From the NCBI GenBank assembly GCA_017991515.1, contig JAGOQI010000001.1, forward strand, positions 41,641-105,640: DNA of 64,000 nucleotides, written 5' to 3'. How positions within the stretch are numbered: position 1 is the stretch's first letter; each line of letters begins with the position of its first letter. Of the stretch, positions 19,834 through 34,703 are shown in pieces. Position numbers and translations under genes: made by a program. The notes beneath the pieces were generated by a model. That model had not been told where the DNA came from. It made no database searches and saw only the letters and a program-made list of their open reading frames with translations. This DNA comes from Minisyncoccota bacterium. GTDB taxonomy: Bacteria; Patescibacteriota; Minisyncoccia; Phycocordibacterales; UBA9973.

Positions 19834-20241
19834 ATGGAAAAAACAACAAAGAAAACATATATAGAAACTATTGGACGACGCAAAACATCAACTGCGCGTG
19901 TTCGAATGACTCCATCTACAAAACAAAGTTATGAAATTAACGGTAAAGACTTGGCGACTTACTTTGCAACTGAAGCCCTCCAAAAAGCTGTTACTGATGC
20001 TTTTACAGCCCTAGAATCAAAAGGCCACTACACTATCACTATCAAGGTTTCTGGTGGAGGTATTAGTTCTCAATCTGAAGCAATTCGTCACGGTATTTCT
20101 CGTGGTCTTGTAAAAGAAGAAGAGACAAACAAAAGTCCTCTGAAAAAAGCAGGTTACCTAAAAAGAGACCCTAGAATGAAAGAGCGACGTAAGTTCGGTC
20201 TCAAGAAAGCTCGAAAAGCTCCACAGTGGAGTAAGCGTTAA
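19834..20241 (+). CDS. rpsI: 30S ribosomal protein S9
   Basis: …GRRKTSTARVRM…GGGISSQSEAIRHGISRGL… C-terminal KR tail. Confidence 0.9.
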   Translation: MEKTTKKTYIETIGRRKTSTARVRMTPSTKQSYEINGKDLATYFATEALQKAVTDAFTALESKGHYTITIKVSGGGISSQSEAIRHGISRGLVKEEETNKSPLKKAGYLKRDPRMKERRKFGLKKARKAPQWSKR

Positions 20242-20250
20242 TCTAAAAAA

Positions 20251-20279
20251 CATCCTCAAAAGAGGATGTTTTTGTTTTA
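20251..20279 (+). terminator. Rho-independent terminator after rpsI (CATCCTC-aaaag-GAGGATG + T-run)
   Basis: 7-bp perfect stem and T-run read directly. Confidence 0.6.
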
Positions 20280-20304
20280 TTTAGAAAAGATATATAATTT
20301 ATGT

Positions 20305-20757
20305 ATGGAAAATATAATGGAAAATCAACAAAGTCCTCGAGAGGTAGGTGAGTCCTTAGGGGTAACTTGTGAACAGCTAAAAACTGAAGTTCAAGAACTT
20401 ATGGATAAAAATGAATACCTTGCCAAAGCAATTAATAAATTTGGAGGAATTGGCATGTTTAATACTTCAGAATCGTTTCGATTTAATGCATTTTCTGGAT
20501 CAGAGTCCGACTCAGAAAGTATTTACCGTTTAATAGATAGTAAAGATAATCTTATAGAGCATTGGGCTTCTGATGGAAAACAAATATCAAATGACGGATT
20601 ATTGTCAATTAAAGAAGAGCTCGAAAATAGAAAAACAAAAATAATAGAAGCTCTATCAAAAGACTTTTCTAATGAAGATGAAGCGTATGAAGCAGTTGAG
20701 AGTATTCATTCAGAATATATTACTCCTTCACTAAATAAAGATCCTATTTTTATATAA
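20305..20757 (+). CDS. Hypothetical acidic protein (about 150 aa)
   Basis: ORF-track start 20266 lies inside the rpsI terminator; an in-frame ATG at 20305 sits 8 nt after a TATAAT (20291-20296), so a later, possibly leaderless, start is more plausible; no family recognised. Confidence 0.4.
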   Translation: MENIMENQQSPREVGESLGVTCEQLKTEVQELMDKNEYLAKAINKFGGIGMFNTSESFRFNAFSGSESDSESIYRLIDSKDNLIEHWASDGKQISNDGLLSIKEELENRKTKIIEALSKDFSNEDEAYEAVESIHSEYITPSLNKDPIFI

Positions 20758-20821
20758 AATTAAAATAAAAAAGTCTTTATACAGGGCTTTTTTTATTGGG
20801 AAAAATCGGTATAATAGCGAC

Positions 20822-21385
20822 ATGAAAGAAGAGGAAGATATTACTATTGAAGATATTGAAATAGAGCCTAGTACTGAGGAAGGACAAGCCCTCTCTGGTG
20901 GCCACAAAATAAAAGAGCTCAAAGAGAAAATCAAAGAGCTCCAAAAAGAAAAACAAGAGTATCTTGATGGCTGGCAACGCGCTCGTGCTGACTATGCAAA
21001 TCTACAAAAAACTTCTGATGAAGAACGCAAAAGAATGCGAACGCTTATCGAAGAGAACTTTATCGAAGAGTTACTACCAACAGTCGATAGCTTTCTAATG
21101 GCTATGAGCAACAAGGAAGCTTGGGAGCGCGTTGAGCCGGCTTGGCGCACAGGTGTAGAATATATTTACAACCAACTCATGAATACCTTAGAATCTCACA
21201 AACTCAAAATCTTTGGAGAAATAGGGGATAGTTTTGATCCACTTAAATATGAAGGTGTAAGTGACGAAACTACAGATGATAAGAAAAAAGATCACACTGT
21301 TTCAAAAGTCCACCAAAAAGGCTTTATGCTAGGCGACTCAATCCTACGACCTGCTAGAGTTTCGGTGTATATACTTAAGAAATAA
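20822..21385 (+). CDS. grpE: Nucleotide exchange factor GrpE
   Basis: Coiled-coil N-term then GrpE core (…LDGWQRARADYANLQKTSDEERKRM…LLPTVDSF…). Confidence 0.85.
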   Translation: MKEEEDITIEDIEIEPSTEEGQALSGGHKIKELKEKIKELQKEKQEYLDGWQRARADYANLQKTSDEERKRMRTLIEENFIEELLPTVDSFLMAMSNKEAWERVEPAWRTGVEYIYNQLMNTLESHKLKIFGEIGDSFDPLKYEGVSDETTDDKKKDHTVSKVHQKGFMLGDSILRPARVSVYILKK

Positions 21386-21417
21386 TAGTTTTTAAATAAA
21401 ATGATATAATTCTATAT

Positions 21418-23037
21418 ATGACAACACAACTACAACAAAGAACTGTCAAGGAAGTTGTACAACAGTATTCTAGTCTATATGGACTACAAGAGTCGAAAGC
21501 TTTTTTATTTTTAGTTATTGAAAAGTATTTTTCAGATAATGATTTAAATAGTATAGATATTGAAGAGGCAATTGTTGATGGTAGTGATGATTGTGGTATT
21601 GATGCAATTGTTATTGATGATTATGGAGACCAACGACCTAATGTATACTTTTTTCAATCTAAATTTTATCAATCCGAAGATGCTTTTGAAAAAAATTTTG
21701 AAGGAGAAGCATTAGACAAAATAAAAAGCTCTATAAACGATTTTGTTTTACAAGGAAAGATAAACAAAAAATATCAAAATACTAGGTTAGTAGACAAACT
21801 TCAATCAGTTAAAAACTTAGGATCTAGAAATCCTCTATACACAATTGTGCTTTGTTCTAATTCAAAAGAACCAACAGATATTGCAAAATCAAGACTTGAA
21901 GAATTTATTACCGAAACAAACAACAGTGCAGCCGGTGAGTATATTTCTATTGAATATCTTCACCTAGACCGAATAACTAAAGAGTTAATCGCACCTCAAC
22001 AACAAAGATTGATTGATATAAACCTACAAACTTCTGGAAAGTTCCTAACTGAAGATACTGGAAATGTTCGATTATTTGTTGGGGCTGTAGAAGCACAGAT
22101 TCTAGCAAGTCTTGTAGAGCAATATGGTAATGATTTGTTTGAGAAAAATGTTAGAGGATTTTTGGGGTCAAATAGTTTAAATAAAAATATTATTCGTACA
22201 GCAACAACAGAACAAAGCCCTTACTTTGTATACATGAATAATGGTATAACTTTAACATGTGAAAGATTTACACATTCTCCAACATCTAACTCTCCATTAC
22301 TAGAAATAAAAAACGCTCAAATTGTTAACGGTCAACAAACAGTTAGATCTTTACACCAAGCAAGTAAATCAGATGAATTAAAACCCGATGTGAAAGTTTT
22401 AATAAGAATAGTAGAGACTACCAACGCCGACTTGTTAAATCAGATAATTGAAGCAACAAATAGTCAAACAAAAGTTACTTCTAGAGATTTACATTCAAAC
22501 GATGAAGTACAAAGACTTATAGAGGAGCATCTAAAAACAAAAGGTTTTTTCTATGAGGCTAGGAAAAATAAATATAAAGGTAAGGATGTATCAAAAAGGG
22601 TTGATGCTGAGATCGCAGCACAGTCTTATTATTCAATTTTTTTTGAACAACCAGCTATAGCTAAGGATAAGAAAAAACTATTATTTGGTGATAAGTACGA
22701 TGAATTGTTTAATCAATACACAAAATCTGAAGATATACTTTACAGTTTTAAACTACTAAGAACTGTTCAAAAATTAAATAATCAAGATAAATATACTAAA
22801 TTTACATTTCTAAACGATGCGACTTTACATATTATTACTTTAATGCAAAAAATATCTGGCAAATTTGATTTTGATAATGACGAAGACATAACGACTAGTT
22901 ATGAAAGGGTCTTAAAAGCATTAAAAATAGTTGTTGATGAAAGAGCAAAAGAAGAGGGTGATAAGTACGAACATAGGAGAACATTTAAAGACCCAGAAAC
23001 ATACGGTAGGGTTGTAGAGGTTTTATTAAAAAAATAA
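21418..23037 (+). CDS. AIPR-family (abortive-infection phage-resistance) protein-like
   Basis: N-terminal region …EAIVDGSDDCGIDAIVIDD…VYFFQSKFY… matches, from memory, the AIPR pattern (D-G-x-D-D-x-G-I-D-A … Q-S-K-Y); 539 aa; inserted between grpE and dnaK. Confidence 0.5.
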   Translation: MTTQLQQRTVKEVVQQYSSLYGLQESKAFLFLVIEKYFSDNDLNSIDIEEAIVDGSDDCGIDAIVIDDYGDQRPNVYFFQSKFYQSEDAFEKNFEGEALDKIKSSINDFVLQGKINKKYQNTRLVDKLQSVKNLGSRNPLYTIVLCSNSKEPTDIAKSRLEEFITETNNSAAGEYISIEYLHLDRITKELIAPQQQRLIDINLQTSGKFLTEDTGNVRLFVGAVEAQILASLVEQYGNDLFEKNVRGFLGSNSLNKNIIRTATTEQSPYFVYMNNGITLTCERFTHSPTSNSPLLEIKNAQIVNGQQTVRSLHQASKSDELKPDVKVLIRIVETTNADLLNQIIEATNSQTKVTSRDLHSNDEVQRLIEEHLKTKGFFYEARKNKYKGKDVSKRVDAEIAAQSYYSIFFEQPAIAKDKKKLLFGDKYDELFNQYTKSEDILYSFKLLRTVQKLNNQDKYTKFTFLNDATLHIITLMQKISGKFDFDNDEDITTSYERVLKALKIVVDERAKEEGDKYEHRRTFKDPETYGRVVEVLLKK

Positions 23038-23047
23038 AATTAATAAA

Positions 23048-23066
23048 CTAGCAAGAACGGCCCTAG
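23048..23066. repeat. Copy 1 (degenerate) of palindromic element CTAGCAAGAACGG…CTAG
   Basis: CTAGCAAGAACGGCCCTAG; shares the 13-nt left arm with copies at 33869 and 34681; overlaps stop codon of 23063..23599. Confidence 0.45.
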
Positions 23067-23599
23067 TTAATCTTTGCTAAATGAAAAAATGCTTGTTCGG
23101 TTTCTTTGTCGAGGGTATTTGTTACAAAAACCATTATTTCGGTAGTGAGTCCGAAATCTTTTTTGATATTTGTGAAGAGATGTTCATAAGGGAAAGGGGA
23201 AACCCAGACACTATTTTTCAAACACATAAAACCAGCCTTCTTTAGAAGGTAACGAAGTGACTCTCTTTCATCTTTTCGAGTCTCTGGAAGATCAAGTATT
23301 ATGATGCGCCATTTACCATCCCATGATGGACTAACTAAGCCATTATCATTATCAAGTTTCAGACTATTTAGCTTCTTTTTACCTTCTTTTGTCAGTCTAG
23401 CGTATTCATTTTGTCCAGAAAAACTTTGTTCTACTAACCCAGTCTCTAGAAGCCCCTTTAAAGAGCGAGAAATGGCCATTTTAGAGCTTTTTTTGTCCTT
23501 TTGAGTACTTACTCGTTCCACTATCTCAGGCACTGAAATAGCCGGCTTTTCAGCTAATAGTTTCAATATTTTCTTCGAGAATGAAGGTTTTATTGACAT
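23063..23599 (-). CDS. PaaX-like winged-helix transcriptional regulator
   Basis: N-terminal wHTH-like (AISRSLKGLLETGLVEQ) and C-terminal WDGKWRIIILDLPETRKDERESLRYLLKKAGFMCLKNSVWVSP motif typical of the PaaX family; divergent from dnaK. Confidence 0.45.
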   Translation of the reverse strand: MSIKPSFSKKILKLLAEKPAISVPEIVERVSTQKDKKSSKMAISRSLKGLLETGLVEQSFSGQNEYARLTKEGKKKLNSLKLDNDNGLVSPSWDGKWRIIILDLPETRKDERESLRYLLKKAGFMCLKNSVWVSPFPYEHLFTNIKKDFGLTTEIMVFVTNTLDKETEQAFFHLAKIN

Positions 23600-23714
23600 A
23601 GTAATATCGTATCAGCTATACTCTTTATATACAAGTATTTCGCGACCGCAAAATTTATGTATTTCTGCACAAAATACTTGCGTTTTTATAAACTTTTAAT
23701 TTTAAAACAAAACT

Positions 23715-25598
23715 ATGGGAAAAATAATTGGAATTGACTTAGGAACTACAAACAGTGCTGTCTCTATCATCGAAGGAGGACAGCCAAAAATTATTGAAAA
23801 TATTGAAGGTTCACGAACTACTCCTTCTATTGTTGCTATTGGAAAAAATGGTGACAGACTTGTTGGCTTGCTTGCCAAAAGACAATCAGTAACAAATCCA
23901 CAAAATACTATCTACGGTATCAAGCGTTTTATGGGTCACAAATATGACGACCATGGTATGGAAAAAGTTATAAAGACTTCACCTTTTAAGGTTTCAAAAG
24001 ATGCCAACGGTGGCGCACTTATAAAACTTGCTGACAAAGACTATAGACCAGAAGAAATCTCTGCTATGATTTTGCAAAAGATCAAAGCAGATGTTGAAGC
24101 AAAGACAGGTGAGAAAATAACAGAAGCTATCATCACTGTTCCTGCATATTTCAACGATGCACAAAGAAAAGCTACGAAGGATGCTGGTGCTATTGCAGGT
24201 CTTGATGTGAAGCGCATCATCAATGAACCAACAGCAGCAGCACTTGCTTACGGATTTAACACTAAAAAAAATGAAAAAATAGTTGTTTATGACTTTGGAG
24301 GTGGAACATTTGATGTTTCAGTTCTTGAAGTAACAGAAGATGTTATTGAAGTTAAATCTACAGATGGAGACTCACTCATGGGTGGACGAGATATTGATTT
24401 GGATATTATCAACTGGATTGCTGAAGAATTTAAAAAGTCATCAGGTATTGATGTTTCCAAAGATCCTCTTGCTTTACAGAGACTAGATGAAGCAGCAGAG
24501 AAAGCCAAGATTGAGCTCTCTACAACTACAGAAACAGAAATAAATATTCCGTTTATTACTTCAACTGATGCTGGACCTCAACACTTACTGTTGAAAATGA
24601 CTCGTGCAAAGCTTGAAGAATTAGCTGATGAGTTTATTGCTCGTTCTATTGAGATAACAAAACGAGCTATGGATGCTTCTCCGTTTAAAGTAGGAGATAT
24701 TAATGAAATCATTATGGTTGGAGGTCAAACTCGAATGCCAAAGATTGTTGAAGAAGTTAAGAAGCTCTTTGGTAAAGAACCAAATCGTTCTATCAATCCA
24801 GATGAAGTTGTAGCTCTCGGTGCTGCAGTTCAAGGTGGAGTTCTTCAAGGAGATGTTCGTGATGTTTTACTTCTTGATGTTATCCCTCTATCTCTAGGTA
24901 TTGAAACTATGGGAGGCGTAGCAACAAAACTTGTTGAAAGAAATACGACTATTCCTTCATCAAAGTCTCAAGTCTTCTCAACTGCTGCTGACAATCAAAC
25001 TTCTGTAGAAATTCATATCGTTCAAGGTGAGCGACCAATGGCGGGAGATAATAAATCTATTGGGCGATTTGTCCTAGAAGGTATTGCTCCAGCACCAAGA
25101 GGTATTCCTCAAGTGGAAGTTTCTTTTGATGTGGATGCCAATGGTATTTTGGCTGTAAAGGCAAAAGATAAAGCAACCGGCAAAGAGCAGTCTATCCGCA
25201 TCGAAGCTTCTTCTGGGCTTTCTGCAGATGATATTGAAAAAATGAAAAAAGATGCAGAGCTTCATGCAGATGAAGATGCTAAGAAAAAAGAATTGGTAGA
25301 TACAAAAAATACTGCTGATCTAACTATCTTCACAGCAGAAAAAGCTCTTACAGAACACAAAGAGCACATAACAGAAGACATCAAAACTGCTGTAGAAGAT
25401 AAAATCAAAACACTTAAAACCACAAAAGAAGGTGATGACAAAAGTGCTATCGAAACTGCAATTCACGAACTCTCTACAGAAATGCAAAAGATAGGTGAAG
25501 CAGTTTCAAAGGCTAAACCAGAAGAAGGTACTGAACCAAAAGAAGGGGGAGTAAAAGACGCAGAAGCCGAAGAGACGTCTGAGGAAAAATCAGAATAA
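23715..25598 (+). CDS. dnaK: Chaperone DnaK (Hsp70)
   Basis: [18 protein letters not shown] and remaining Hsp70 signatures; 627 aa. Confidence 0.95.
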
Positions 25599-25666
25599 AC
25601 AATACTTGACAGTTTTCAAGTAACATGCTATCTTATATCTAGAATTTAATGGGTTAGTAAGTAAAA

Positions 25667-25695
25667 GGGGTTCCAGCCATGGAACCCTTTTTTTG
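25667..25695 (+). terminator. Rho-independent terminator after dnaK (GGGTTCC-agccat-GGAACCC + T8)
   Basis: 7-bp stem and T-run read directly. Confidence 0.65.
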
Positions 25696-25730
25696 TAGCT
25701 TATTTACAGCTTTGTGATACAATCTTGGGC

Positions 25731-25808
25731 ATGAATAAGAAGCGAAAAATTGCAGCAAAGAAAAAGCGAAAGGCTGATGGTAAAACAGTAAATCTAAGAC
25801 ATAGATAA
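25731..25808 (+). CDS. Possible 25-aa very basic peptide (MNKKRKIAAKKKRKADGKTVNLRHR)
   Basis: ATG..TAA in frame, preceded by extended -10-like TGATACAAT; 7 nt before the HAD gene; may be non-coding. Confidence 0.2.
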   Translation: MNKKRKIAAKKKRKADGKTVNLRHR

Positions 25809-25815
25809 TTTTTCT

Positions 25816-26586
25816 ATGACTATACTAAACTCCGAAAAGTATAGCGTTGTCTCATTTGATCTCGACGGTACTATAACTGAAAGTCGACAACCCATAGAGC
25901 CCTACATGGTAAATCTTTTAAATAAGCTCACTGAAAAAGTGTTGGTTGTTATTATATCTGGAAGTTCATTTAAAAATCTTTTAAACCAATTAGATCTATT
26001 TCTAAATCAAGAAAATAAAGAAATATTTAAAAACATACTTCTAATGCCAGCTAATGGTAGCGAGACTTATATCTATAAAACTACAAATTGGGAGATTTCT
26101 GATTCTGAAACTATGGGGAATGAAACTAAGAGTAAAATTATTGAAGTTTTAGAAAAATTAATAGATTCAAAAAATTTTAATATTCCAGAGATGGAAGTAG
26201 GCACTAAAATTGAAGATAGAGGAACTCAAATATCTTTTGCAGCACTTGGTATAGATGCTTCGATAGAAGAGAAAAAACTTTGGGACCACGATCAAGAGAA
26301 AAGAAAAAAGATAGTAAACTTTATAAAGCCACTACTTCCTGAAACTGACATTTTTATTGCTGGAACTACAACAATAGATATTTTACCGAAAGGAATAACA
26401 AAAGGAGTAATGTTAAGAAAAATGTTATCAAAAAGAACTCTCCTTGATACTGACTTACTATTTATTGGGGATGCACTATTTGAAGGAGGGAATGACTACG
26501 AAGTAAAAAAGGAGGGATTTAATACCATTTCAACAACAGGACCAAAAGAGACAGCAAAGATTATAGAAAGTATCTTAGAGAAGTAA
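25816..26586 (+). CDS. HAD-superfamily (IIB/Cof-like) sugar-phosphatase
   Basis: Motif I FDLDGTIT at N-terminus; motif IV-like FIGDALFEGGNDYEV near C-terminus. Confidence 0.55.
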   Translation: MTILNSEKYSVVSFDLDGTITESRQPIEPYMVNLLNKLTEKVLVVIISGSSFKNLLNQLDLFLNQENKEIFKNILLMPANGSETYIYKTTNWEISDSETMGNETKSKIIEVLEKLIDSKNFNIPEMEVGTKIEDRGTQISFAALGIDASIEEKKLWDHDQEKRKKIVNFIKPLLPETDIFIAGTTTIDILPKGITKGVMLRKMLSKRTLLDTDLLFIGDALFEGGNDYEVKKEGFNTISTTGPKETAKIIESILEK

Positions 26587-26588
26587 GA

Positions 26589-28262
26589 CTACTTATACTT
26601 GTGGTCGTGTTTATTATTTAATATTGGTATATAGCATTTATCTGTATATTCTTTCATAACCCTATTGGTTGAAAAATGTTCCTCTATAAGAGACCTAGAA
26701 TTTTTCATACGAGATAGCCATTTAGAATTACCTTGATCAAGAATATGACTATAATACATAGGCAAGATTTCTTCTTCAGTTATATCAAGCATTTTTTTAG
26801 ATAAATTTTCTGATTCATTTAAGACCCAGCCACAATCATTAACATCAACTTCAGCAATCCATCCATCTTTTGTAGAAAATGGAAGAACTCCATTTAATGC
26901 GGCCTTCATTCCGCTTGTACCACACGCCTCTCTACCTATCTCGGGAGTATTAAGCCATACATCACAACCAGCGACCATCAAAGTAGCTATATCGATATTA
27001 TAATGTGGCAAGAAAACAGCAACACCAGAAAGCTTTTCACTTATAATATTTTTGAGCTGTGCTAATAACTCATTATGGTGAACATTATTTGTTGGTCCTG
27101 AAAAAACAATTCTAAAAGGTTTATCACTATTTTGAGCTAATGCTACAAATCTTTCGACATCTTGAATAAAAGCAAGAGGTTGTTTGTATGGAACCATACG
27201 ACGCCCCCAACCAAAAAGTAATGTGTTTTCATCCCAAAGTTCTCCAGTTTCTTCTTTTATATATTGTAATAATTTCTTTTTATTTTCTTGGTGCAATCCC
27301 CATATATTTATACTGTCACTAATTTTGTCCCATCTAGGAATATAAATACCGTTAGTAATATTATCCATTTTATATTCAGGCCAAACATTTTGAGCTTCTT
27401 TGCCATGAAGAATACTGACAGAATTAGCTATAGAAGAAAATCTAAAAGAAAACATAGTCATTGAAAATAGTTTCGGATCATCTGTTATACCCATAGATAT
27501 AATCTCGTCAGTCGTAACACATATCTCTTTTGCATAACCATCTAATGCTTTAGCAATACTATCAACAGCAAAAATCTCTTGCCCAGCAGCAACCAATGTG
27601 TGATTGGTAAACAAAATATGTTTACTCGCATAACTACAAGCTGTACTAAAATCAACACGCTGATGTATCATTTCATGATTGACTAGTTCTAATGCCAAAA
27701 AAGCACTATGTCCTTCATTGAGGTGATAGACACTAGGATGTAACCCTAACAAATGCCTGAGAAATCGAAATCCTCCAATACCTAAAAGTATTTCTTGTTT
27801 CAAACGCAACTCTCTATCTTCTACATATAATTGCTCAGTAATAAGTCTGTCTTCAGCGGTATTTTGTTCAACATCAGTATCAAGCAAGTAAACATTAGCT
27901 CCATTTTCATTCCAGTGCCATATCTGAAAATATATTTGCCTACCACTAATAGGTATAGAGATTACAACAGGAGACTCCTTTACTGAAATAATTTTAATCT
28001 CTTTATTGCTTTCCGAATTATTGGTAATAATGTCGTTTTGTCCTTTTTTATACAAAAGACCAATAAAAACTATTGGTAGATCTTGCTCTGCAGACTCTTT
28101 CACAATATCTCCAGCTAGTATTCCTAAGCCCCCAGCATATATTGGTAGGGTAGGAGATAGTGCATATTCGGCTGAAAAATAAGCAACTGGATTTTCTTTT
28201 AGTGTTTTATAATCTTCTGTTTCTTTAAATTTTGAAGCCCATGTATCTTTGTTTGTTTGCAT
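26589..28262 (-). CDS. Alpha-glucan phosphorylase (GT35 family, short archaeal-like form)
   Basis: GGLGILAGD near N-terminus and the PLP-lysine region EACGTSGMKAALNG. Confidence 0.6.
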   Translation of the reverse strand: MQTNKDTWASKFKETEDYKTLKENPVAYFSAEYALSPTLPIYAGGLGILAGDIVKESAEQDLPIVFIGLLYKKGQNDIITNNSESNKEIKIISVKESPVVISIPISGRQIYFQIWHWNENGANVYLLDTDVEQNTAEDRLITEQLYVEDRELRLKQEILLGIGGFRFLRHLLGLHPSVYHLNEGHSAFLALELVNHEMIHQRVDFSTACSYASKHILFTNHTLVAAGQEIFAVDSIAKALDGYAKEICVTTDEIISMGITDDPKLFSMTMFSFRFSSIANSVSILHGKEAQNVWPEYKMDNITNGIYIPRWDKISDSINIWGLHQENKKKLLQYIKEETGELWDENTLLFGWGRRMVPYKQPLAFIQDVERFVALAQNSDKPFRIVFSGPTNNVHHNELLAQLKNIISEKLSGVAVFLPHYNIDIATLMVAGCDVWLNTPEIGREACGTSGMKAALNGVLPFSTKDGWIAEVDVNDCGWVLNESENLSKKMLDITEEEILPMYYSHILDQGNSKWLSRMKNSRSLIEEHFSTNRVMKEYTDKCYIPILNNKHDHKYK

Positions 28263-28269
28263 AATTAAT

Positions 28270-29760
28270 TTATCCTCGTTGTTCTGGCTGTCCGCCTCTT
28301 ATATGTTTATATTTTTCGGTGTAACGATCAAGTGTCTCTTCGACTTCAAAATTAGGAATCTCTAAACGCAATAACTCTATAGCATGTACTGCATCATAAA
28401 TATCATTTTTTGTTTCAATTTTGTAAATTGCATCACGCCACAAAATAGCTTTTTCATATTCACTGTTAGAAGAAGCTTTTTTCTCTAATGATTTTAACAT
28501 ATCCATAAATGCTTCATATATCCCTTGTTCAACACCACCTTTTTCAAATGTCCTTTCTTTGAAAGGTATTTTTACATTGTTTTGTTGCCCTGCCATCATT
28601 TTATAAATTTTGCCGCTTCTTTTCCATTGAAATGCTGTTGAGACAATTTTTTCATATAAATCCAAAGCTTTGTTTTTATCTTCTTGGCTAACCTTAACAA
28701 TAGACCTAACTATTGATAAATTAGCAAAAGCTCCTTGTTCTATTTCTTCTAAACTCCACCATGGTTTTGCAGATGCCCACCAAAAGTGATCTGACGCTAA
28801 AGCTTGGTCTAGCATACTTCTTATTTTTTTATATTCAGGATCTGCTTCAGACATTAGTTTTACAGATTCTTGCGCCAAATTAACCAAAGACCATTGCCAA
28901 GTGTGTATTTGATTTTCTGGATCAGACCATGATAAAAACTGAATGCCATTTTCAATATCAGACTGACTAGAAGCCCAGGTTGAAGCAATAGGGACAACCT
29001 CATCTGAAACAGGGAAGCTTTCTACTAATTCTGAAATCTTAACTAATTCAAAATCAGGGGAATCAAAAATTTCAAAAAGTAATTTTTCAAGACCTGGACG
29101 ATGGTGACCAAAAGTTTCTCCATCCATAGCTGTTAACAAATATGATTTATTATCCAACTCTTCTCCAAGTGCACTAACTAAAGATTGAGCCGAACGAACC
29201 ATAGAACTCATTATAAGATTACTCGGCCTTCTTTCTCTAAAGAAAACCTTAAGATCTGTACCTTTTAATCTATGGATACCCTCATATGAAAGTTGTTCAG
29301 TCTTACCATTAAAACTAATCTCATCTAATATTATCCATTCAAATCCTAGCTCAGCTATTATTTTCCCAACCTCTTCATCATAGGCCATCTCTGGTGGGAA
29401 AAAACCTTTAGGTTGGAAATCATTTCCTAAATATTTTTGAAGAGTTAGGGTATTAATTTTTATCTGACGGATAACTTCTTCTTTAGTTAAAAATGGTAAG
29501 AGTGCATGGTACTTTGCAGTTCCAGTAATCTCTAGTCTTCCTTCGTCAACTAATTTTTTAATAATATCAATAACATCTGAGTATCCATTTTCATCTAATA
29601 ACTCAAAAAGAGCACCAGTGATATTGATAGTCATCTTAACTTTTGGATTGTTAAGCATTTCGGAGAATATTGGTCTATAACTTTGGTGTACTACCGCTTC
29701 CAAAATATCAGGCTGTTGATTTGCAGGTTGATATATATGTAAAAAGTTGGCCCATTTCAT
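28270..29760 (-). CDS. Glycoside hydrolase family 57 alpha-glucan-active enzyme (branching enzyme or amylase-like)
   Basis: N-terminal …FLHIYQP… and overall GH57-like layout; sits between glgA and the phosphorylase. Confidence 0.5.
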   Translation of the reverse strand: MKWANFLHIYQPANQQPDILEAVVHQSYRPIFSEMLNNPKVKMTINITGALFELLDENGYSDVIDIIKKLVDEGRLEITGTAKYHALLPFLTKEEVIRQIKINTLTLQKYLGNDFQPKGFFPPEMAYDEEVGKIIAELGFEWIILDEISFNGKTEQLSYEGIHRLKGTDLKVFFRERRPSNLIMSSMVRSAQSLVSALGEELDNKSYLLTAMDGETFGHHRPGLEKLLFEIFDSPDFELVKISELVESFPVSDEVVPIASTWASSQSDIENGIQFLSWSDPENQIHTWQWSLVNLAQESVKLMSEADPEYKKIRSMLDQALASDHFWWASAKPWWSLEEIEQGAFANLSIVRSIVKVSQEDKNKALDLYEKIVSTAFQWKRSGKIYKMMAGQQNNVKIPFKERTFEKGGVEQGIYEAFMDMLKSLEKKASSNSEYEKAILWRDAIYKIETKNDIYDAVHAIELLRLEIPNFEVEETLDRYTEKYKHIRGGQPEQRG

Positions 29761-29766
29761 AATGTA

Positions 29767-31224
29767 CTATTTATTAAATTGATTAAGAGCCCTTTCAAAA
29801 AGTTTTATGTATTCTTTTGCTGACTTTTCCCAAGAAAAATTTGTTCCCATAGCTCTCTTTTGTATTTCTCTCCAAACTTTTGGATACCTATATGTCTCAT
29901 AAGCCCTAACAAAAGCCCCAAACAATGCATAGTGATCATAAGCTTCAAAAACAAAACCTGTTCCAAGATTATTTTTTAAGTCGACATCTTCAACGCTATC
30001 TACTAGTCCTCCAACATGACGAACAATAGGAACAACACCGTAACGCATTGCTTCCATTTGAGTAAGACCAGATGGTTCAAACCTAGATGGTATTAATATA
30101 GCATCAGCTCCCGAGTATATAACATGGGGAAGTATGTCGTCATAAGAGAGGTGAGTAGCAACATTTTTGTATTTTTTATCCAGTTCTTCAAAGAAGGATA
30201 AGTACTTAGAATCTCCAGAACCTAAAATAACAAATTGAAAATCAAAGTTATTCAAAAGTGGTTCTACTACCTCCATAACCAAATCAAAACCTTTCTGTTC
30301 CGCCAAGCGCCCTACCATAGCAACAACAAAAGTTTCTTTGTTCTCTGGTAAGTTAAATTTTTGTTGTAAGATTTTTTTATTTTTAAGTCTTTCGTTTAAA
30401 TCTTTAGAGTCGTATTTATATTCAACATAAGGATTAGTCTCTGGATTGTAAGCATCATAATTAATACCATTTAAGATACCAAAGAGTCTGGAGCGTCTCT
30501 CTTGCAACAAAGTATCCAAGGTCTCTCCGTATTCTGGACTAGTTATTTCTCGAGCATAGTTAGGGGAGACAGTATTGATAACATCAGCATAGCGAATACC
30601 TCGACGCATAAAATTTAATTTCAAGAGCCTGGGGTCTGAAATAGATGGGATTTCTGATTGACCATCATCATAATCAAGTTCGCTAATATGGTGATAGTCG
30701 TATGTTCCTTGAAAATGAATATTGTGAATTATAAAAATACTCGCAATAGTAGAGACAATAGGGTCGTCTTTATAATTACACTTCATATAGTTGGCGATTA
30801 ATCCTCCTTGCCAATCATTTCCGATGATAATATCAGGTTTCCATCCATCTTTACTTTTTGCAAATTCAATAGCTCCACGAGCAAGCAACGCCCACCGAGA
30901 CGCGTCATCATCATAACCATAAACACTACCTCTTTTTTCATAATACTCTTCGTTCTCAAGAAAATAAGTAATTAAACCTTCTGAAGACGAATACTCTTTA
31001 ACATTACAAATAATATCTTCGTGTTCTAAATCTGGAACATGCATTTGGTTGACCTTTGTTTTAAATTCAAATTTTTCCTGATCGATAATGCCGTATTTAG
31101 GAATAAGTGTTCGAGCATCATGACCTATTTCATTTAAGGCTTTTGGTAGGGCGTATAAAACTTCTCCTAAACCACCAACCTTAACAAAAGGAGCACATTC
31201 TGATCCCACAAAAAGTATTTTCAT
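29767..31224 (-). CDS. glgA: Glycogen/starch synthase (GT5)
   Basis: MKILFVGSECAPFVKVGGLGEV… ; ORF-track N-terminal extension to 31323 overlaps the upstream cupin gene, so the internal ATG at 31224 is used. Confidence 0.75.
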   Translation of the reverse strand: MKILFVGSECAPFVKVGGLGEVLYALPKALNEIGHDARTLIPKYGIIDQEKFEFKTKVNQMHVPDLEHEDIICNVKEYSSSEGLITYFLENEEYYEKRGSVYGYDDDASRWALLARGAIEFAKSKDGWKPDIIIGNDWQGGLIANYMKCNYKDDPIVSTIASIFIIHNIHFQGTYDYHHISELDYDDGQSEIPSISDPRLLKLNFMRRGIRYADVINTVSPNYAREITSPEYGETLDTLLQERRSRLFGILNGINYDAYNPETNPYVEYKYDSKDLNERLKNKKILQQKFNLPENKETFVVAMVGRLAEQKGFDLVMEVVEPLLNNFDFQFVILGSGDSKYLSFFEELDKKYKNVATHLSYDDILPHVIYSGADAILIPSRFEPSGLTQMEAMRYGVVPIVRHVGGLVDSVEDVDLKNNLGTGFVFEAYDHYALFGAFVRAYETYRYPKVWREIQKRAMGTNFSWEKSAKEYIKLFERALNQFNK

Positions 31225-31252
31225 TTTTTTGCCTTGCTTCATAAAATTCATA

Positions 31253-31843
31253 CTAATTTTTCTCAATAATAATGTTTGGTACATTTTTATAATTAGGATT
31301 TTTAATAAAATCAGGATTACCATCTTTACTTACTACATAATAAGCAAAACCTCTATTGTCTTTAACTGGCTTATAGTCAGCATGTATTGGCCACGAAGCT
31401 TTTTCGTTTTTAGACATTGCCACAGGGCTATCATCAGATGTTACTAACCAAGACTCTCCTATATTAATAATAAGATGTCCTGATTTTGGTGGAACAGTAA
31501 TAACACTTCCTGCGCTAAAATAAATAGCTTTTATACTCTCTACTTCGTTATCGATCAGTTCTCCACTTGAAAGCTTTTTTCTTTCTTGTAAAAGCATTAT
31601 TCCTTCACCGGACAAAACTGTATAAATTTCTGGCAATTCATCTACATGATAGTGACCATAAGCCTTTATATACTCACCACCAACATTTCCACTTTCCAGT
31701 ACTGTGATATTTTTTTTCTGACTTCCACCTCGAATCATATAATAGTGAACATTTGGTCCTGAGCTTTCAGGAGACATCAAAACATCTTTCATCTCTTCAT
31801 GAGTGCGTACAGCCATGATGTCTGTCTTATGCAAAGTATCCAT
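31253..31843 (-). CDS. Cupin-type glucose-6-phosphate isomerase (archaeal cPGI-like)
   Basis: Core GEYIKAYGHYHVDELPEIYTVLSGEG plus later PPKSGHLIIN matches the metal-binding cupin PGI signature (T-x-G-H-x-H … E-x-Y … H) as recalled from Pyrococcus/Thermococcus PGI. Confidence 0.5.
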   Translation of the reverse strand: MDTLHKTDIMAVRTHEEMKDVLMSPESSGPNVHYYMIRGGSQKKNITVLESGNVGGEYIKAYGHYHVDELPEIYTVLSGEGIMLLQERKKLSSGELIDNEVESIKAIYFSAGSVITVPPKSGHLIINIGESWLVTSDDSPVAMSKNEKASWPIHADYKPVKDNRGFAYYVVSKDGNPDFIKNPNYKNVPNIIIEKN

Positions 31844-33868: not shown

Positions 33869-33891
33869 CTAGCAAGAACGGTTCTTGCTAG
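33869..33891. repeat. Copy 2 of palindromic element: perfect 23-bp palindrome CTAGCAAGAACGGTTCTTGCTAG
   Basis: Perfect inverted repeat around a central G; flanked by A-run and T-run, so can act as bidirectional terminator for GNAT gene (minus) and small ORF (plus). Confidence 0.55.
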
Positions 33892-33899
33892 TTTTGATT

Positions 33900-34460
33900 T
33901 CATTTTCTTAACTTTAACCAATCTCTTTTGAAAACTGAAAGTAGTACTTGATCATGGTATTTTCCATCACGATAATGATGTCTTTTTAAAACACCTTCTA
34001 CTTTGTAACCACAATTTTGATTATGCTTGATACTTCCTTTGTTTTTTGCAAAAGCATCACTACATATCTTACGGAGATTAAGAGTCATGAAAGCATACTC
34101 CAACAAAAGCATTTTTGCTTCTCTGGCATACCCTTTGTTCCACTCTTCTTTTGCGCCAAGCATAGAACCTGTACAAGCTATACCGCTTACATAATCAATA
34201 CGATGTAGCCCCATAGTACCAAGGAATTTATTGTCTTTTTTCAAAACAACAGCTAAGACAATGTTGTTAGGGTTTCTCGAAGAAACTCTTTTTATCCATT
34301 CTTCTTCGTCTCCTTTAGATAAAGGGTAAGTACTTGATAGATATTTCCTAACATCAGGGTCATTAACAAACCTTTGAACTAAACTCAAATCACTAAGATC
34401 AAGTGGTCTTAAGTAGAGTCTTTTGCCTTGCAAGAAAATTACCGGGGTTTTCTTTTTCAT
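33900..34460 (-). CDS. GNAT N-acetyltransferase (RimJ/RimL-like)
   Basis: …LYLRPLDLSDLSLVQRFVNDPDVRKYL… and GNAT motif A region; internal ATG at 34460 preferred because a hairpin lies inside the ORF-track extension 34461..34526. Confidence 0.6.
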   Translation of the reverse strand: MKKKTPVIFLQGKRLYLRPLDLSDLSLVQRFVNDPDVRKYLSSTYPLSKGDEEEWIKRVSSRNPNNIVLAVVLKKDNKFLGTMGLHRIDYVSGIACTGSMLGAKEEWNKGYAREAKMLLLEYAFMTLNLRKICSDAFAKNKGSIKHNQNCGYKVEGVLKRHHYRDGKYHDQVLLSVFKRDWLKLRK

Positions 34461-34680
34461 AATTTTAATTTTTAAAGTTAAATAATAAAAGAACAACCGA
34501 CTCATCATGAGCCGGTTGTTATACAAGATTGAGAAATAATTACTTATTTATACAAATACCGGACCACGAGAAAAAGCGACAGGGAAGTGAGCTCCTGACC
34601 AAACTTGTTTCATATTAGTTTGTATACATAAATAATGCATAAGCCATATAATACTATATTTTTTGTTTTTGTAAAGTTTA

Positions 34681-34703
34681 CTAGCAAGAACGGTTCTAGC
34701 TAG
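34681..34703. repeat. Copy 3 of palindromic element CTAGCAAGAACGGTTCTAGCTAG
   Basis: Differs from copy 2 by two substitutions in the right arm; about 15 nt upstream of the promoter for 34822. Confidence 0.5.

Follow-up and report, generated by a model that had tools for sequence, protein, structure and literature searches.

Which of the genes that lie between grpE and dnaK in a Minisyncoccota bacterium belong to this chaperone locus, and which have been added to it? We addressed this question for a stretch of 64,000 nucleotides (nt) of contig JAGOQI010000001.1, the whole of which is called the window below. A first-pass annotation had described an AIPR-family, abortive-infection-like gene and a convergent PaaX-like gene as two insertions between neighbours that are normally adjacent, and had proposed that the regulator might be a functional partner of the defence gene. 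The four open reading frames (ORFs) were all found where it had placed them (aa, amino acids):

20822..21385, plus strand: grpE (Pfam GrpE, E=1.9e-37), the left anchor of a variable slot
21418..23037, plus strand: AbiU/AIPR-family gene, 539 aa (Pfam AIPR, PADLOC AbiU), the sole inserted gene
23063..23599, minus strand: PaaX-like gene, 178 aa (Pfam PaaX_M), a conserved resident of the locus
23715..25598, plus strand: dnaK (Pfam HSP70, E=2e-240), the right anchor, on which the promoter and operator described below are predicted to act

We favour the reading, with a probability of about 0.7, that a lone AbiU-type defence gene lies beside an unrelated, resident PaaX-like gene, the product of which would regulate dnaK.

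Genes between grpE and dnaK

Related loci were collected from GTDB species representatives by a GrpE scan, which yielded 46 loci with GrpE identities of 38-81%, and they were probed by tblastn with the proteins of the window. All of the 34 nearer relatives (GrpE at least about 44% identical) have the PaaX-like gene on the minus strand in the interval from grpE to dnaK, so that the presumed normal adjacency of the two anchors does not apply to them. The gene is missing in 11 more distant relatives, in which grpE abuts dnaK or another ORF of about 100 aa lies in between. The family comprises more than 1800 proteins, the best 120 of which share at least 63% identity and have a length of about 176 aa. 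Judged by this distribution, the PaaX-like gene is about as conserved as GrpE and behaves like a core gene.

In contrast, the AIPR gene is absent from all 46 related loci, and of the two supposed insertions it alone is lineage-specific. It has a GC content of 0.301, the fourth lowest among 67 ORFs (mean 0.354, standard deviation 0.034). Because of this absence and the low GC content, the AIPR gene is best classified as a strain- or species-specific acquisition in the chaperone locus. The proposed acquisition thus stands for the AIPR gene and falls for its neighbour, and conservation of position across the lineage was found for the PaaX-like gene and not for the AIPR gene. The junction of grpE, AIPR and PaaX-like gene recurs in two other assemblies, Logan SRR11088410 and SRR11088409, which may share a project with the metagenome-assembled genome (MAG) analysed here; a mis-join of the MAG alone is therefore unlikely.

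The two genes might still form a defence cassette of an effector and its dedicated regulator that was acquired as a unit. They are adjacent and convergent, with a 13-mer element in between, and winged-helix regulators are carried by many defence systems. This view is hard to reconcile with the distribution of either gene. All 34 nearer relatives have the PaaX-like gene at the same spot without an AIPR gene, and a PaaX-like neighbour was not found for AIPR genes in 13 contexts of its close clade and 80 distant metagenomic loci (about 90 loci). Moreover, a palindrome and a promoter associate the PaaX-like gene with the dnaK side, and a search of the window revealed no candidate PaaX-like site in front of the AIPR gene. 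We therefore regard a common cassette as highly improbable; on the distribution of both genes, the PaaX-like gene is neither co-inserted with the AIPR gene nor its partner, as had been proposed.

The 13-mer lies between the stop codons of the two genes:

23048..23060, plus strand: exact copy of CTAGCAAGAACGG, the left arm of a 23-bp palindrome

It had been called a degenerate palindrome copy, which is fair since the right arm is lacking. Elsewhere in the window, exact copies occur solely as left arms within a pair of nearly identical 23-bp palindromes, CTAGCAAGAACGGTTCTTGCTAG and ...GGTTCTAGCTAG, at 33869-33891 and 34681-34703. These bracket a GNAT acetyltransferase gene (ORF 33900-34526, minus strand): one is located at its 3′ end and is terminator-like, the other is placed 155 bp ahead of the gene start, within a region of divergent promoters, where a terminator is unexpected. 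Among 140 fetched loci, CTAGCAAGAACGG was found solely in copies of the window's own contig and in none of the relatives. We considered the 13-mer as a cassette boundary and rejected this, as no copy exists 5′ of the AIPR gene or in relatives. One relative (L006) has a similar hairpin, AAGCAAGGAC-AG-GTCCTTGCTT, at the equivalent junction of grpE and the PaaX-like gene. Together with the absence of the 13-mer from relatives, this suggests that the copy at 23048 is probably a remnant or one half of a bidirectional terminator.

A candidate operator upstream of dnaK

The 178-aa protein matches PaaX_M (PF20803, E=8e-22) over residues 91-169, the Cas2-like central domain, in agreement with its initial assignment. 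The N-terminal winged helix is only weakly recognized, by an ArsR-type helix-turn-helix model (E=1.5e-5, residues 10-76) and, also weakly, by HTH_5. The protein stops at residue 178, where the ligand-binding C-terminal domain of PaaX would begin, and has no match to that domain; the TIGR02277 score is 40, compared with a cut-off of 264.55. For these two reasons the protein is assigned to the PaaX family at the domain level and is not taken to be a phenylacetate repressor. No paa genes were found at the locus, and a comparison with the sequences of the PDB gave no significant match.

Two elements were found in the region between the PaaX-like gene and dnaK:

23593..23622, plus strand: sigma-70-like promoter TTGACA-18 nt-TATACT (11 of 12 consensus matches), facing dnaK
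23631..23660, no strand assigned: palindrome ACAAGTATTTCGCG-AC-CGCAAAATTTATGT, candidate operator

The promoter is the best sigma-70-like one of a 5.7-kb region, and its −35 box overlaps the start codon of the PaaX-like gene (CAT, 23597-23599). The core of the palindrome, GTATTTCGCGACCGCAAAAT, lies at 23635-23654, 12 nt past the −10 box, and is embedded in a longer palindrome, ACAAGTATTTCGCG-AC-CGCGAAAT...GT. The palindrome occurs once in the window, while the expectation from shuffling is 0. Its consensus reads ACAAGTATTTCGCG-RY-CGCGAAAT.

The palindrome is distributed like the PaaX-like gene. Each of the 32 evaluable PaaX-like loci, i.e. those in which the intergenic region is present, has one copy beside the start of that gene, and its centre is 46-60 nt from the start in 24 of 30 aligned loci and farther away in six. 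Where genes intervene, in L019, L030, L032 and L034, it stays with the PaaX-like gene and not with dnaK. In the loci without the PaaX-like gene, which amount to 883 kb, no copy with up to four mismatches was found. The arrangement of promoter and palindrome is retained in 25 of 30 related loci under a strict pattern, with two further near-variants. The conserved promoter has the form TTGACA/TTGCAT, 16-18 nt, TATACT, and 9-16 nt separate the end of its −10 box from the palindrome core in 25-27 of 30 loci.

These observations are compatible with the following mechanism. The PaaX-like protein combines a winged helix with a Cas2-like dimerisation domain and lacks a CoA-ligand domain, and its gene is divergently paired with dnaK throughout the clade. 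As a dimer, the protein would most likely bind the palindrome of 20-30 bp just past the −10 box of dnaK, which lies upstream of the PaaX-like gene at about 35-45 bp from the start codon, and the bound dimer would repress dnaK as well as the PaaX-like gene itself. The synteny in all 34 nearer relatives, the co-distribution of the palindrome and the conserved promoter are the reasons why the protein is best read as an autoregulated dnaK repressor and not as a defence partner. The analogy with PaaX of E. coli, which represses its own gene, binds an inverted repeat that overlaps promoters and occludes RNA polymerase there (PMC9493321), points in the same direction.

The palindrome could also act as RNA, i.e. 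as a thermometer or attenuator hairpin in the 5′-UTR (untranslated region) of dnaK, with the PaaX-like protein having its role elsewhere. Its position just past the predicted transcription start, and hence within the dnaK leader, would fit, and complementarity is kept in some symmetric variants (CGCG/CGCG, CGTG/CACG, CACG/CGTG and AGTG/CACT). However, complementarity is perfect at some positions only; at distances of 3 and 5 from the centre it is kept in just 57% and 43% of 30 loci, where C/A and C/T combinations also occur, and the conservation extends into flanks that do not pair (ACAAGTA; AC...GT at a distance of 14-15). The strict co-distribution with the protein and the fixed distance to the start of its gene are likewise unexpected for a leader hairpin. 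An Rfam scan of 20000-26000 at E≤1 gave two sub-threshold chance matches near 20245 and none in the dnaK leader, so that no family matches the palindrome region. Because of the imperfect complementarity and the conserved non-pairing flanks, the RNA hairpin was rejected as the main model and is considered improbable, and a protein operator is favoured.

Several points weigh against the proposed dnaK repressor. In L029 and L036-L038, the deepest branches with the PaaX-like gene, the promoter is arranged differently around the palindrome. There is one palindrome copy per locus and no further chaperone gene in the window, so a regulon cannot be demonstrated. HrcA (tblastn with the HrcA of L056) and the CIRCE pattern were detected neither in the window nor in L005-L050, while the unrelated positive control L056 has both; this search covered flanks of up to 8 kb, and hrcA could lie elsewhere in the genomes. 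A complementary distribution of HrcA and the PaaX-like protein is therefore not demonstrable from these flanks. DNA binding and repression are predictions from the protein and its surroundings, and responsiveness to heat shock would be pure conjecture.

The AIPR gene and its landing sites

The 539-aa protein matches Pfam AIPR (PF10592) with E=1.2e-42 and 147.2 bits, far above the cut-off of 25, over residues 241-486. The PADLOC model of AbiU matches with E=5.7e-70, residues 7-492 aligning with positions 3-488 of the 537 model positions, and the NCBI label is already "AIPR family protein". By these profile matches, the protein is a genuine member of the AIPR/AbiU family, as first suggested. Three parts of the gene are relevant here:

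21418..21987, plus strand: N-terminal PD-(D/E)xK nuclease domain (Mrr/MspJI/FokI-like), about residues 1-190
21589-21663, plus strand: catalytic motif D58, D62 ... Q80-S-K82
22138..22875, plus strand: AIPR domain proper, residues 241-486, with the motifs NNGxT..C, QIVNGxQT and TNSQ...RDL..N

The first-pass annotation had taken an N-terminal motif as an AIPR signature. This motif, DGSDDCGIDA...FFQSK, lies outside the AIPR domain and is a D...QxK variant of the PD-(D/E)xK nuclease motif, which is known from MspJI and Mrr. In an alignment of 50 homologues with identities down to 25%, D58, D62 and K82 do not vary, Q80 shows a conservation of at least 90%, and the three motifs of the AIPR domain are also invariant. 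The AlphaFold2 model has a predicted local distance difference test (pLDDT) score of 84.7. A nuclease-like fold was recognized, and the catalytic residues are intact. The nuclease assignment agrees with a 2026 review, in which lactococcal AbiU was aligned to FokI (PMC13064643).

From the N- to the C-terminus, the protein comprises an endonuclease, the AIPR domain, which is probably ParB/DUF262-like, and a helical domain. For the AIPR domain, a ParB/Srx (DUF262-like) fold is probable; the structural matches for this fold are modest only, Pfam DUF262 does not match, and the AIPR profile has no significant match among PDB sequences. Makarova et al. 2013 reportedly described a ParB-superfamily fold for the AIPR core. 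AbiU1, AIPR and COG1479 have been placed in the ParB superfamily (PMC3632139). For the C-terminal half a HEPN fold had been suggested; neither this fold nor an Rx4-6H motif was found there.

From this architecture, a mechanism can be proposed in which the ParB-like module senses or binds a nucleotide or nucleic acid and licenses the N-terminal endonuclease to cut invading DNA. The AIPR gene would function without any partner. AbiUi on its own gives phage resistance and delays phage transcription (PMC13064643), with which a nuclease mechanism would match. Anti-phage activity and the nuclease target are predicted from sequence in this case. The sharper domain reading, an Mrr/MspJI-type D...QxK nuclease followed by a ParB-like AIPR core, offers a testable mechanism for the family.

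Two −10-like boxes precede grpE and the AIPR gene:

20810-20815, plus strand: TATAAT, −10-like, 6 nt before the grpE ATG
21402..21410, plus strand: TGATATAAT, extended −10-like box, 7 nt before the AIPR ATG, a possible promoter of its own

The latter box may give rise to a leaderless or short-leader mRNA. No terminator-like site was found between grpE and the AIPR gene, so that read-through is possible, and both the extended −10 box of the AIPR gene and read-through from grpE probably contribute to its transcription. The −10-like hexamers of grpE, AIPR and PaaX-like gene, i.e. TATAAT, TATAAT and TACGAT, end 6-7 nt before the ATG, and the respective regions (20810-20824, 21402-21420 and 23597-23611) have no Shine-Dalgarno sequence. 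This combination suggests that leaderless mRNAs occur in the source organism.

The insert spans about 21386-23062 and comprises a 32-bp leader with the TGATATAAT box, the ORF, and 25 bp that hold the 13-mer. About 14 relatives have 3-40 bp between grpE and the PaaX-like gene, while in about 20 relatives a gap of 290-800 bp follows grpE and contains unrelated small ORFs (NUDIX, GrpB, SET, unknown). Into this variable slot of a Paceibacteria/Nomurabacteria-like lineage a solitary AbiU-type gene would have landed. Around the AIPR gene, neither terminal inverted repeats nor a target-site duplication were found beyond AT-rich chance matches, and its neighbourhood contains no integrase, transposase or recombinase genes. 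The unusual C-terminus of the PaaX-like protein (...HLAKIN, compared with ...ELAK or ...DLAKNS in other homologues) was considered as a mark of the right-hand junction and discarded, as no more than its final two codons are affected.

The wider interval from S9 to dnaJ is variable too. Across 48 loci it contains 60 unrelated ORFs of at least 110 aa, which include three MazF/PemK-type toxins (in L005-L050), NUDIX, SET and GrpB proteins, methyltransferases, hydrolases and a trypsin-like peptidase. PADLOC matched only four of the 60 cargo ORFs, each with a different, weak model, and for this reason we rejected a dedicated defence island; within the S9-grpE-dnaK-dnaJ interval, the spaces between core genes are a general hotspot for accessory genes. 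AIPR landings in this interval could guide the search for defence genes where classical defence islands are missing from the genome.

The surroundings of the locus in the window and its relatives contain further accessory ORFs. Upstream, the block S13-S11-S4-rpoA-L17-L13-S9 is followed by an orphan ORF of 163 aa (20266-20757, plus strand, GC 0.299), which has no Pfam or NCBIfam match and is detectable in one relative only (L009, 28% identity); its slot between S9 and grpE is the one occupied by an AIPR gene in L141. Downstream, dnaJ is located 6 kb 3′ of dnaK, beyond glycogen-metabolism genes: the gap of about 6 kb (25816-31843) holds genes for a PMM-like HAD protein, glycogen phosphorylase, GH57, glycogen synthase and GPI. 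In most relatives, dnaJ follows dnaK after 0.1-2.5 kb; L006, like the window, has PMM and GlgP genes 3′ of dnaK. A 547-aa peptidoglycan-binding protein is part of the cargo of L029. Four more distant relatives without the PaaX-like gene have a conserved ORF of about 100-108 aa between grpE and dnaK, on the same strand as these (L040 1550-1873, L047 4129-4440, L048 8462-8764 and L049 8566-8892), with the features F.V.F.V...G...K...PY...RAP.

About 40 proteins are 45-74% identical to the AIPR protein of the window, and those with a named source stem from Paceibacterota MAGs. We examined 13 contexts of this close clade, which were not a random draw because long contigs were preferred. The AIPR gene is solitary in all of them and usually co-directional with a preceding housekeeping gene; the contexts differ and have no neighbour in common. 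It was found after gyrA, gyrB plus one ORF, mnmA or ddl, beside PDDEXK_1 and AAA_15/21 genes, near a DndB-like gene, and after genes for an ABC-ATPase and a RhuM-family protein, while several contexts are without a notable neighbour. Distant relatives are encoded by P2-like prophages, e.g. Salmonella phage RE2010 (full-length identity 30%), and by plasmids, including Lactococcus plasmids, which fits a mobile defence gene.

Three of the 13 close contexts touch the grpE-dnaK unit, each at another position:

window: grpE, AIPR; co-directional with the operon
L141, 5001-6620: S9, AIPR, grpE, dnaK; 62% identity to the AIPR protein of the window
L056, 6001-7632: hrcA, grpE, dnaK, AIPR; 62% identity to the AIPR protein of the window

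Neighbour-joining does not place the three proteins as sisters, and the nearest relative of the window's protein is encoded after gyrA. This suggests independent events, i.e. that the clade has been placed in the S9-grpE-dnaK-dnaJ interval at least three times. The recurrence also counts against an indifferent landing site, since it hints that the location may not be neutral. The AIPR clade might have been recruited into grpE-dnaK units, so that the nuclease is co-expressed with a phage-triggered stress response, or, in a variant of this idea, the protein might monitor the DnaK/GrpE machinery that phages exploit. The three different positions, the apparently independent events, the consistently co-directional orientation with the operon and the lack of a terminator-like site after grpE in the window would all be expected from such a role. 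However, the interval is a hotspot for unrelated ORFs, few of which match defence models, and this bias alone could yield three of 13 contexts; the recurrence is thus explicable by the accessory-gene hotspot. In addition, the remaining ten AIPR genes follow gyrA, gyrB, mnmA, ddl and others, and the sample is small and non-random. We consider a functional position, in both variants taken together, unlikely.

A broader proposal would combine both sides of the locus: a hitherto undescribed chaperone repressor would replace HrcA/CIRCE in a large clade of Patescibacteria (Paceibacteria/Nomurabacteria-like), and the locus would be a preferred landing or expression site of AbiU-type genes. We put this forward tentatively, at somewhat below even odds. 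If it is true, the stress response of these minimal genomes would be linked with their defence against phages. The AIPR gene as such is ordinary, and the regulator and the repeated landings at grpE-dnaK are the more interesting by-products of the analysis. The PaaX-like protein and its palindrome form a directly testable pair, a candidate regulator of the chaperone locus with its operator in a large clade.

Comparison with known systems

The closest known counterpart of the AIPR protein is AbiU of Lactococcus lactis (AbiUi/AbiU1). AbiU is located on a plasmid, whereas the gene described here is chromosomal, in an ultra-small Patescibacteria genome and inside a chaperone locus. It also lacks a neighbouring AbiU2 (HEPN) gene, and its product is only about 25-30% identical to the best phage and plasmid matches. 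GmrSD, BrxU and SspE follow the same logic of a ParB/DUF262 module combined with a nuclease, but the nuclease and the order of the parts differ: in these proteins and in DndB/DndI the nuclease is a C-terminal DUF1524/HNH domain, compared with an N-terminal PD-(D/E)xK domain in the AIPR protein. MzaE of the MZA system has the AIPR core in common, as seen from an NCBIfam MzaE match over residues 209-370. However, the score of 50.4 bits is far below the equivalog cut-off of 1050, so the AIPR protein is not a member; its neighbours are grpE and the PaaX-like gene, and no MzaABCD-like genes were found beside it.

PaaX of E. coli and Pseudomonas shares the winged helix and the Cas2-like PaaX_M domain with the 178-aa protein. 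It is about 300 aa long and has a phenylacetyl-CoA-binding C-terminal domain that is absent here, and its site is TGATTC-N27-GAATCA, compared with the compact palindrome of the candidate operator. A literature search for chaperone-gene control, heat shock or PaaX-like regulators in the candidate phyla radiation returned nothing. In other bacteria, HrcA/CIRCE, HspR/HAIR and RheA likewise combine a regulator gene tied to the dnaK operon with a palindrome at or just past the start of the chaperone promoter. Their protein families are unrelated to the PaaX-like protein, and by this analogy a sensing of temperature or chaperones would be conjectural here. The divergent, autoregulated layout resembles RheA-hsp18. 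The PaaX-like protein is thus most likely, by analogy, a functional counterpart of HrcA/CIRCE, HspR/HAIR or RheA at a locus without a visible hrcA gene or CIRCE element.

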